Below, in pieces: positions 6,338 through 64,000 of a stretch of DNA of 64,000 nucleotides; positions within the stretch are counted from its first letter, which is position 1, and the number at the start of each line of letters is the position of its first letter. Source of the stretch: Escherichia coli O127:H6 str. E2348/69 (GTDB lineage Bacteria > Pseudomonadota > Gammaproteobacteria > Enterobacterales > Enterobacteriaceae); the NCBI RefSeq assembly GCF_000026545.1, contig NC_011601.1; one strand, given 5' to 3'. The notes beneath the pieces were generated by a model. It was given only the letters and a program-made list of their open reading frames with translations. It searched no databases and was not told where the DNA came from. The position numbers and the translations under genes are program-made.

Positions 6338-6679
6338 TTAACAGAGTTTTTCAGCTCGCTCTATAAACGGTGCCAGACTCATTTTTTCGCCGGGATTGTT
6401 AGGATCATCAATCTGAATCACCGAAATGAGTTGGGCTTTAGTCTTCCCACTGGCAACTTCCTTTTGTGCGATATCGTTTAAAGGATACTGCACGAGGGTA
6501 CTTGGGTTGATGACATACAAAGCATTACCTGGTCGGCAAGTCAGCATCACCTCTTCGCGATTAAACGCCCATTTGTCTTTACCCACTTCAAAACGGCTGA
6601 CGGTAATCACCTGCGGTGCCGCCAGCGCAGCTGCAGAACTGGTGAGTAACAGAAACGCCAGAATACTTTTTTTCATCAT
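6338..6679 (-). CDS. yebY: YebY (DUF2511) exported protein, 113 aa
   Basis: ORF with signal peptide ([20 protein letters not shown]); last gene of the yobA-yebZ-yebY cluster. Confidence 0.9.
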
Positions 6680-6691
6680 TTTCGTAATCCA

Positions 6692-7564
6692 TCAAAAAGG
6701 TTCGAGAGTCGCAAGCAGGCTGATGATCACCAGCACTACCGCACCTATCGCCCATTCGAGTTTAGTCATCCAGACAAACCAGGGAGCCGCACGATCTTCA
6801 TCCTGCCTCATGCGCGGTACAAGAACATAACGATTAGCCAGCGCGATGACCACCATAATCATCACCAGGATGGCTTTGAGCAATAAGAGTTGGCCCCAGT
6901 AAGTCGTAAGCGTGGGGGGAAATCCGGTAATCAACAATGCATTAAGCACGCCGCTTGCCAGTACGCCGATCACCGCAAAATGCCCGCACCAGGAAAAACG
7001 CATCAGCGCCTGAATAGCCTGGTGTCGCCAACGGCCTTTGATGAGTTGCATACACCAAAGCACCGGCAGTAATCCCCCAAACCACGCCGCCGCACAGATC
7101 AGGTGAATTGCGTGATTAGTCTGATGGATTTTCGCCGTTACCCCTTCATTCAGCGTCGCATGCCCGACTCCCGCCAGCAGAAAAAATTGCGCGGTAGTGA
7201 GCATAAACAGCAAACGTGGCATATTCCGCGGTTGCATAAGAGCAACGATCAACGTTACGAGGGCGAGAACAATTTGCCATAACCAGACGCCACCAAACTG
7301 CGTTTGCAAAACAGCCTGCCAAATATTTGGCGAAAATACATCTGTCCATCCCGTTCCCATCAACCCGCCCTGAACGGCGAGCATTGCAGTGGCACTGATC
7401 AAACTCCAGACGGCAGCGTGCTGTTGTAAACGCAGAAAACGCTTCGTCAGCAAGCGACGAATCGTTAAGGGTGCCAGCCAGGCACCGTACATTGCGAAGC
7501 CAAAGACCAGCATCAGCGAGGTGAAATGGATAAATTGCAGCGCGATCCAGGTAAACGCCAGCAT
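6692..7564 (-). CDS. yebZ: YebZ, CopD-family inner-membrane protein
   Basis: 290-aa polytopic membrane ORF immediately downstream of yobA. Confidence 0.9.
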   Translation of the reverse strand: MLAFTWIALQFIHFTSLMLVFGFAMYGAWLAPLTIRRLLTKRFLRLQQHAAVWSLISATAMLAVQGGLMGTGWTDVFSPNIWQAVLQTQFGGVWLWQIVLALVTLIVALMQPRNMPRLLFMLTTAQFFLLAGVGHATLNEGVTAKIHQTNHAIHLICAAAWFGGLLPVLWCMQLIKGRWRHQAIQALMRFSWCGHFAVIGVLASGVLNALLITGFPPTLTTYWGQLLLLKAILVMIMVVIALANRYVLVPRMRQDEDRAAPWFVWMTKLEWAIGAVVLVIISLLATLEPF

Positions 7565-7567
7565 GAT

Positions 7568-7942
7568 TTATTTCACGCTAAAGGTGTAGTGTCCTTTCGT
7601 TTTATGCCCATCCACCGAAACAACATGCCAGTCAACGGTGTAGGTTCCGGGTTTCAGCGAATCGGCCAGTGGAACAATCAGTTGCTTTTGGTCCTGCTCA
7701 TTCCGCTTCGCCGGTAATGTTTTAATATTTTCGTTTTTTGGCCCCGTGATTTTTGCACCACTGAATCCTGTTTCAACGCCTTCCGAGAAGTTTAAAGTAA
7801 TTGCCTGCGGGGCAGCTGTCACTTGCGCGTTTGCCGCAGGATACTGATGCGTTAAATGCGCATGTGCCCAGACGGAAGGTGTCACCAACGAAGTGGTCAG
7901 GATTGCCAGCGCGTAGCGAAGGGAGCGTGCAGTTGAAGTCAT
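7568..7942 (-). CDS. yobA: YobA, CopC-family periplasmic copper-binding protein
   Basis: 124-aa ORF with signal peptide and a CopC-like fold signature (HAHL...GTYTVDWHVVSVDGHKT). Confidence 0.9.
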   Translation of the reverse strand: MTSTARSLRYALAILTTSLVTPSVWAHAHLTHQYPAANAQVTAAPQAITLNFSEGVETGFSGAKITGPKNENIKTLPAKRNEQDQKQLIVPLADSLKPGTYTVDWHVVSVDGHKTKGHYTFSVK

Positions 7943-60138: not shown

Positions 60139-62889
<2,751 letters not shown>

Positions 62890-62908
62890 CTGTCTCTTGA
62901 TCAGATCT
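62890..62908. repeat. Terminal inverted repeat of an IS50-family element (matches the IS50 inside-end 19-mer)
   Basis: CTGTCTCTTGATCAGATCT begins exactly where the araH frame is interrupted; the transposase stop codon (TGA on the minus strand) lies inside it. Confidence 0.8.
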
Positions 62909-64000
62909 CCTGATCAAGAGACTTCATCACCAGGTAACCCTCAACCATATCCTGAAGTCTGAACCAGCCATCCCACATGACTACCCAACCGGGGCGACCG
63001 GTGCGTTTGCTGTCATGCCATCGCCCCAGTTTCGCCAGTTTCAGACAGGCCCATTTCAGTGTCGGCATCTGTGACGGAAGCGGTTTTCCTTCCAGCTTAA
63101 CCCACAGCAGTTTCCACTCTGTCGGCGTCAGTATTTTCTCACAGCTGTCATTTTGTGTTTCTTCACTGATACCGCCCTGCCGCAGGCCCAGCACCCGCAC
63201 CGCGATAAACGCCTTGATAACCACCATGCGCTCGAGGTTATCCCGGGTCTGCATTCGCAGCGATTCCACACATGTACCACCACTTTTCCACGCCTTGTGG
63301 TATTCCTCTATCAGCCAGCGTCGCTCGTAATGGCTGACGATACGTCGCGCATCGGCGGCACTCGCCACTTTTTCTGACGTCAGCAGATGCCAGCAGGCGC
63401 CGTCCTCTGCCTGCTCCCGGCAACAGACATACGTGAGCGGGAGCGCCTGGCCGCTGTTGTCGGGATTTTTTATGCTGACTTCGCTGTAACTGATGAACAT
63501 CCGGGCCTGGCGGGCTGCCCGCCCGCCTTTTTGCATCACATTCAGCGTGTGGCTTCCCGCGGTTGCCAGGACTTCCGGCAGTTCGAAGAGCTTGCCGGGT
63601 GCTTCTTCCAGCCGGCGATTCTGTGCTGCACGCACCACGAAGCGCTGCCCGTGGCTGACTTTATAATGCAGGTAATGCCAGATATCCGCTTCCCGGTCAC
63701 AGACAGTGATTACCCGTTTCTGTATCTCCCCCAGCCGTTCGGCCATGCGCTCCGAAGCCTGCTGCCAGCGGTAACTTTCTTTTTCTTCATAGGGACGTTC
63801 TTTTCGCTGGTGCTTAACACCGTAGGTGTCCGTGGCACGACTCCAGCGCTGCTGTTCGATAAGACCGACTGGCAGGGCGCTGTCGGGGGCGTACATCAGG
63901 ACAGAGTGAGCCAGCAGCCCGCGCGTCTTCGGGTTAGTGGTGGTATTCCCCAGGTCATCAGATGCCGTACTGTGACTGAAGTTAATGGTGGTGGTGTCTT
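62901..64000 (-). CDS. IS4-family DDE transposase (Tn5/IS50 Tnp homologue), C-terminal ~365 codons; N-terminus lies beyond the window
   Basis: Frame is open from the window edge (DTTTINFSHS...TRGLLAHSVLMYAPD...) to the stop at 62901; VITVCDREADIW and RWLIEEYHKAWKSG align with the D188 and Y-R-E-K catalytic motifs of Tn5 Tnp, and DSKRTGRPGW with its C-terminal region. Confidence 0.85.
   Translation of the reverse strand, partial: DTTTINFSHSTASDDLGNTTTNPKTRGLLAHSVLMYAPDSALPVGLIEQQRWSRATDTYGVKHQRKERPYEEKESYRWQQASERMAERLGEIQKRVITVCDREADIWHYLHYKVSHGQRFVVRAAQNRRLEEAPGKLFELPEVLATAGSHTLNVMQKGGRAARQARMFISYSEVSIKNPDNSGQALPLTYVCCREQAEDGACWHLLTSEKVASAADARRIVSHYERRWLIEEYHKAWKSGGTCVESLRMQTRDNLERMVVIKAFIAVRVLGLRQGGISEETQNDSCEKILTPTEWKLLWVKLEGKPLPSQMPTLKWACLKLAKLGRWHDSKRTGRPGWVVMWDGWFRLQDMVEGYLVMKSLDQEI

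Follow-up and report, generated by a model that had tools for sequence, protein, structure and literature searches.

The final kilobase of the stretch of E. coli DNA analysed here (the window, 64,000 bp) raises the question of how a transposase gene that has diverged from that of Tn5 comes to end in a terminal 19-mer identical to the inside end (IE) of IS50, and whether it belongs to a natural insertion sequence (IS) or was left by a laboratory transposon. The window matched the genome of E. coli O127:H6 E2348/69 at 100%, and the 1110 bp from position 62891 to its end were 100% identical to genes that E2348/69 and a few other strains carry under the annotation 'IS4-like element ISEc13 family transposase'. 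We conclude, with a probability of about 95%, that the feature represents 1.1 kb at the right-hand side of a complete and apparently active copy of ISEc13, a natural IS4-family insertion sequence of the IS50 subgroup, lying in araH of E2348/69. PGAP annotates the transposase gene as WP_000244358.1 under the same product name, and the name ISEc13 rests on this PGAP naming together with the 100% identity to annotated copies. ISEc13 (an ISfinder name, assigned to the IS4 family; as annotated by PGAP) is already catalogued, no difference from the annotated E2348/69 copies could be detected, and the araH copy is an ordinary, native one, neither an engineered insertion nor a new kind of element.

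The window edge cuts the element. A full copy measures 1550 bp and occupies positions 6391-7940 of the E2348/69 locus (L002), equivalent to window positions 62890-64439, with 439 bp extending beyond base 64000. It encodes the transposase (Tnp) only, as a single 457-aa ORF, and carries no cargo; the gene order in E2348/69 is flhDC-uspC-otsA-otsB-araH'-ISEc13-'araH-araG-araF. Annotation and comparison with the empty site place the C-terminal fragment of araH, which encodes the arabinose ABC transporter permease, at about 62505-62889 on the minus strand and the insertion point at approximately codon 201 of 329, and the other half of the gene lies past the window (L002 7940-8551). ISEc13 is bordered on both sides in araH by a 9-bp direct repeat, CCAATCGCC, the left copy of which lies at 62881-62889 (no strand) and the second past the window (L002 7941-7949), both having been read directly. 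Deletion of ISEc13 and one copy of CCAATCGCC leaves exactly the intact araH of E. coli 536, and this exact restoration of the empty site shows that the araH insertion was a real transposition event. A junction fragment spanning 61500-64000 was matched at 100% in three O127:H6 assemblies only; in more than 5000 other genomes the match was confined to its first 1390 bases, that is to 62889, and among 5426 complete E. coli genomes araH was split by ISEc13 in three O127:H6 assemblies only. With araH interrupted, the O127:H6 E2348/69 lineage presumably lacks a working high-affinity AraFGH arabinose transporter, in which case the insertion documents an AraFGH knock-out specific to that lineage.

The chromosome of E2348/69 carries approximately 29 near-identical copies of ISEc13 (29-30 places), and full-length matches were found in roughly 880-1370 of the 5426 complete E. 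coli genomes. The copy in dgoD (L035 1151-2700) was identical to the araH copy at 1550/1550 positions and the pMAR2 copy (L001 3000-4549) differed from it by one mismatch. The presence of near-identical copies at so many chromosomal places implies recent activity of ISEc13. The dgoD copy is flanked by an 8-bp duplication, TGCATGGG, compared with 9 bp at araH, and the pMAR2 copy, situated between finO and hok, is without a target duplication, suggesting later rearrangement or recombination between copies. If the araH copy were instead an inactive fossil and not a functional IS, the failure of a sigma-70 scan to find any promoter-like site upstream of tnp in ISEc13 would be readily accommodated (nor did -35/-10 hexamers sought by eye around TTGAAC and TATATT show convincing spacing), as would the literature that mentions ISEc13, which according to titles and abstracts consists of mobile-element inventories and in which no transposition assay was found. 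However, the 457-aa ORF is unbroken and encodes every catalytic residue, both ends and the 9-bp duplication are perfect, the copies compared are identical or a single base apart, and the araH insertion is specific to one lineage, all of which make a fossil very improbable and argue for a functional ISEc13 copy. A search of Rfam at a permissive threshold returned no match in or around ISEc13.

The ends of this ISEc13 copy were compared with those of an IS50 copy on the Citrobacter freundii plasmid p6_B (L003), whose Tnp aligns residue for residue (1-476) with the crystallised Tn5 Tnp and is near-identical to it, and whose outside end (OE) and IE were read directly as CTGACTCTTATACACAAAT and CTGTCTCTTGATCAGATCT. 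The right, inside-end-type terminus of ISEc13 occupies 62890-62908 (plus strand, read inward from the terminus) and is also CTGTCTCTTGATCAGATCT, a match of 19/19; allowing up to 3 mismatches, this 19-mer has no second match in the 64-kb window, and 100 shuffles gave 0 matches. As in IS50, it contains two GATC (Dam) sites, at 62899-62902 and 62904-62907, and the transposase stop codon, TGA at 62901-62903 on the minus strand. The left end (L002 7922-7940) is CTGTCTCTTATACACAAAT, which is of the outside-end type and agrees with the OE of the p6_B copy at 18/19 positions, with the canonical OE CTGACTCTTATACACAAGT at 17/19 and with the mosaic end CTGTCTCTTATACACATCT at 17/19, the last two as given in the oligonucleotide table of PMC3347997. 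Position 4 is T in ISEc13 and in the mosaic end and A in the IS50 OE. A full-element comparison of the kind proposed in the first-pass annotation therefore yields one IE-type and one OE-type end, and both begin with CTGTCTCTT, the terminal signature of the subgroup. The left end also retains the DnaA-box-like TTATACACA of the OE; since both this motif and the two GATC sites of the right end are kept, host control by DnaA at the left end and by Dam at the right end has, by analogy with Tn5, probably been retained. Both elements are also about 1.5 kb long and duplicate 9 bp of target. At the DNA level they are about 46% identical, with strong islands of identity at the two termini alone, and ISEc13 differs from IS50 in Tn5 in not being part of a composite transposon. 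We also noted that in p6_B two direct-orientation IS50-like transposase genes flank blaCTX-M-25 (L003 1982-6427), a unit that looks like an IS50-based composite carrying an ESBL gene, and that the OE of its downstream IS50-like copy is a variant carrying A at position 18.

Within the window the transposase gene runs on the minus strand from 62901 to 64000 and encodes residues 93-457 plus the stop codon, as assigned from WP_000244358.1 and homology to Tn5 Tnp; the complete 457-aa coding sequence would extend to window-equivalent position 64274. The coordinates in the first-pass annotation suggested an ORF start near 63900, which proved to be an internal Met in a frame that stays open up to base 64000, and the C-terminus in the window reads KSLDQEI followed by the stop. 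The best homologue of solved structure was Tn5 Tnp (phmmer against PDB, E 6e-84, ISEc13 residues 6-453 against Tn5 residues 9-469). Pfam models Tnp_DNA_bind (70 bits) and DDE_Tnp_1 were found and Dimer_Tnp_Tn5 scored 24.1 bits, just below its cutoff of 26.7, and the NCBIfam IS4-family equivalog NF033590 scored 514 bits against a cutoff of 160. In a global alignment with the 476-aa IS50 Tnp of p6_B, 188 of 441 aligned columns were identical (42.6%; 39% by tblastn), and identity to Tn5 Tnp fell from 51% over the first 70 residues to 35% in the core, with 39% in the C-terminal part. Despite this divergence, the catalytic residues D97, D188 and E326 of Tn5 are conserved as D93, D193 and E323 (codons at 63996-63998, 63696-63698 and 63306-63308, minus strand). 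The Y-(2)-R-(3)-E-(6)-K motif defined for the IS4 family in PMC2266710 is present, with Y319, R322, E326 and K333 of Tn5 corresponding to Y316, R319, E323 and K330, and Tn5 R210 and W298 are likewise kept, as R215 and W295, so that both catalytic and phosphate-coordinating residues are conserved; the roles of R210, Y319 and R322 in Tn5 are described in PMC2566895. The three-domain layout known from Tn5 Tnp (PDB 1MUH, 1MUS, 4DM0) is also shared. ISEc13 is placed in the IS50 subgroup of the IS4 family by its DDE and YREK residues together with Tn5 Tnp homology over the full length, the terminal signature and the 9-bp duplication at araH. Most of what the first-pass annotation had read from the letters is borne out by these comparisons: a terminal 19-mer equal to the IS50 inside end, a stop codon within it, and a transposase that keeps the DDE and YREK motifs and is nevertheless diverged from that of Tn5; the peptide stretches quoted there were all located in the minus-strand ORF.

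By homology to Tn5, ISEc13 would move by cut-and-paste transposition, with a Tnp that comprises an N-terminal end-binding domain, an RNase-H-like core containing the YREK signature and a C-terminal dimerisation region. Tnp would bind both 19-bp ends before synapsis, as in Tn5, and conservation of R215, Y316, R319 and W295 suggests excision via DNA hairpin intermediates (PMC2566895). Insertion with a 9-bp staggered cut would then account for the duplication of CCAATCGCC at araH.

To place the combination of conserved ends and a diverged transposase in context, we recovered 29 loci encoding related transposases (39-53% identical) by scanning one genome per species. Their termini were near-identical, of the form CTG[T/A]CTCTTATACACAAAT on the left and beginning CTGTCTCTTGATCAC on the right, with symmetric ends in some lineages; most of the recovered relatives and IS50 begin with CTGTCTCTT, and a few show one-base variants such as CTGACTCTT and CTATCTCTT. 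According to PMC2266710, IS4-family groups often have only 20-50% Tnp identity together with subgroup-specific conserved terminal repeats, and the IS50 subgroup had 19 members at that time. Transposases that diverge while their ends stay conserved are, for IS4-family subgroups, the documented rule; the pattern that the first-pass annotation had singled out is real, but its noteworthiness was overstated, since PMC2266710 and the 29 relatives show the same.

The closest transposases are those of IS50-subgroup elements in Vibrio owensii, Alishewanella, Alteromonas and Pseudoalteromonas (49-52%), which share with ISEc13 an identical left end, CTGTCTCTTATACACAAATC, a palindrome at the right end whose inner arm, GTCTCTTGA, is invariant, and a left-end hairpin from end position 16. 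They differ from ISEc13 in that their right end, CTGTCTCTTGATCACAAGT, has a single GATC, a T-run and then TTGAAC come after their left hairpin (the T-run is missing in ISEc13), and the stop codon falls just outside the 19-mer (checked in Vibrio). We also observed that the motif GATTTTTTGAAC directly follows the left hairpin in the relatives and lies about 70 bp further in for ISEc13 (L002 7776-7875, in the 5' untranslated region). ISEc13 exceeds its clade relatives in length by about 45-70 bp, as though additional sequence had entered between the left hairpin and GATTTTTTGAAC.

A second alternative is that ISEc13 recently acquired its inside end from IS50 by recombination or end capture. Its Tnp is nearer to the Vibrio, Alishewanella and Alteromonas relatives (46-52%) than to IS50 (42.6%), yet among the elements compared end position 15 is G only in IS50 and ISEc13, creating the second GATC in both. 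However, identity with IS50 at the right end stops within the last ~22-26 bp with no extended tract, and an island so short makes recent capture unlikely. Moreover, several relatives carry CTGTCTCTTGATCACATCT, which is one base (position 15) away from the shared IS50/ISEc13 inside end, and a single C-to-G change would suffice; the inner palindrome arm of ISEc13 has the matching G, which argues for local co-evolution. We therefore give recent capture little credence.

The remaining alternative, that a laboratory strain retained an engineered Tn5 or mini-Tn5 insertion, can be dismissed: the terminal 19-mer equals the IS50 inside end and the opposite end shares the first 16 bases of the synthetic mosaic end, but a canonical Tnp would be more than 95% identical where that of ISEc13 is approximately 42% identical, no cargo or resistance gene lies between the ends, the araH junction is of the IE type, the element is 1550 bp long with its own 5' region, E2348/69 holds about 29 copies, and between a quarter and a third of complete E. 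coli genomes, of human, animal and water origin, contain ISEc13 matches. We had rejected this candidate on the ~42% identity and the araH/araG/araF neighbourhood. The first-pass annotation, which likewise favoured a native IS50-group relative over a laboratory Tn5, had named identity above 95% to Tn5 Tnp together with adjacent resistance genes as what would indicate an engineered insertion; neither was found, resistance genes being absent from the neighbourhood, which consists of araG, araF and the two parts of araH, and the complete 1550-bp IS with its 9-bp duplication agrees with a native ISEc13.

E2348/69, a widely used EPEC reference, thus carries about 29 elements with ends close to Tn5 mutagenesis substrates. 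Because the ISEc13 ends match these substrates at 19/19 (IE) and 17/19 (mosaic end) positions, hyperactive Tn5 Tnp used for mutagenesis in E2348/69 could cross-mobilise the ~29 resident copies, and the resident transposase could conversely remobilise mini-Tn5 insertions, both possibilities being drawn from the end sequences. The first 16 bases of the left end CTGTCTCTTATACACAAAT are those of the mosaic end, or Nextera adapter, CTGTCTCTTATACACATCT, and genuine reads across the ~29 ISEc13 junctions of E2348/69 could be cut short by adapter trimmers. The laboratory-optimised mosaic end was, in this respect, already resembled by natural IS50-subgroup ends.

Further differences from IS50 concern the Inh protein and secondary structure at the ends. 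The Inh start of Tn5, M56, is replaced by Q52 in ISEc13 (L002 7620-7622), with the next Met at residue 127, and Tn5 E54 corresponds to T50; with no Met at this start, an IS50-style Inh product seems to be absent from ISEc13. At the right end we found a perfect 13-bp palindrome, GTCTCTTGATCAG / CTGATCAAGAGAC, with a 5-nt spacer at 62892-62922 (no strand; fold -22.4 kcal/mol, z -3.9), which is composed of end positions 3-15 and the last tnp codons (KSLDQ) and contains a third GATC at 62912-62915. Its inner arm is invariant in eight clade elements, synonymous sites included, and its extension covaries with end position 15, being G in both arms in ISEc13 and C in both arms in Vibrio. At the left end a hairpin (L002 7890-7940, equivalent to 64389-64439, minus strand; -22.1 kcal/mol, z -5.3) overlaps end positions 13-19 in ISEc13 and starts at position 16 in relatives (L004 1410-1438 and the left ends of L006, L010, L016, L023 and L027). 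Its stem is conserved through compensatory changes, positions 24-28 showing 2-4 different canonical pair types among six elements, the pairs being counted per sequence from individual folds as MAFFT did not align the hairpins in register. The relatives from Vibrio owensii, Alishewanella, Alteromonas, Pseudoalteromonas and MAGs have both structures, whereas IS50 and the other sublineages have neither, with z values for IS50 of -0.7 and +0.2 against the -5.3 and -3.9 of ISEc13.

In IS200 a bidirectional rho-independent terminator at the left end protects the element against impinging transcription (PMC4513863), and on this precedent termination is the most likely role of the left hairpin, which in the ISEc13 clade would plausibly shield tnp from outside transcription in a terminator-like manner. 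The hairpin lies, as in IS200, within the first ~35 nt of the left end and upstream of tnp; in contrast, IS200 belongs to an unrelated family (IS200/IS605, with an HUH transposase), and the ISEc13 hairpin overlaps the transposase-binding 19-mer. A terminator scan called the left hairpin of the Vibrio relative but not those of Alishewanella and ISEc13, and the label 'terminator' is secure only for some clade members. That the ISEc13 clade, and not IS50, possesses in the left hairpin, which overlaps positions 13/16-19 of the transposase-binding site, and the right palindrome a previously undescribed pair of end-embedded structures that replaces the Inh-based control of IS50 is a tentative proposal, which we consider rather doubtful at present. 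We also noted five terminator-like sites on the plus strand at L002 6855-7272 (window 63354-63771), all antisense to tnp, where shuffles lead one to expect 1.6 +/- 1.5; these could limit antisense transcription from the right end, or could be due to chance.
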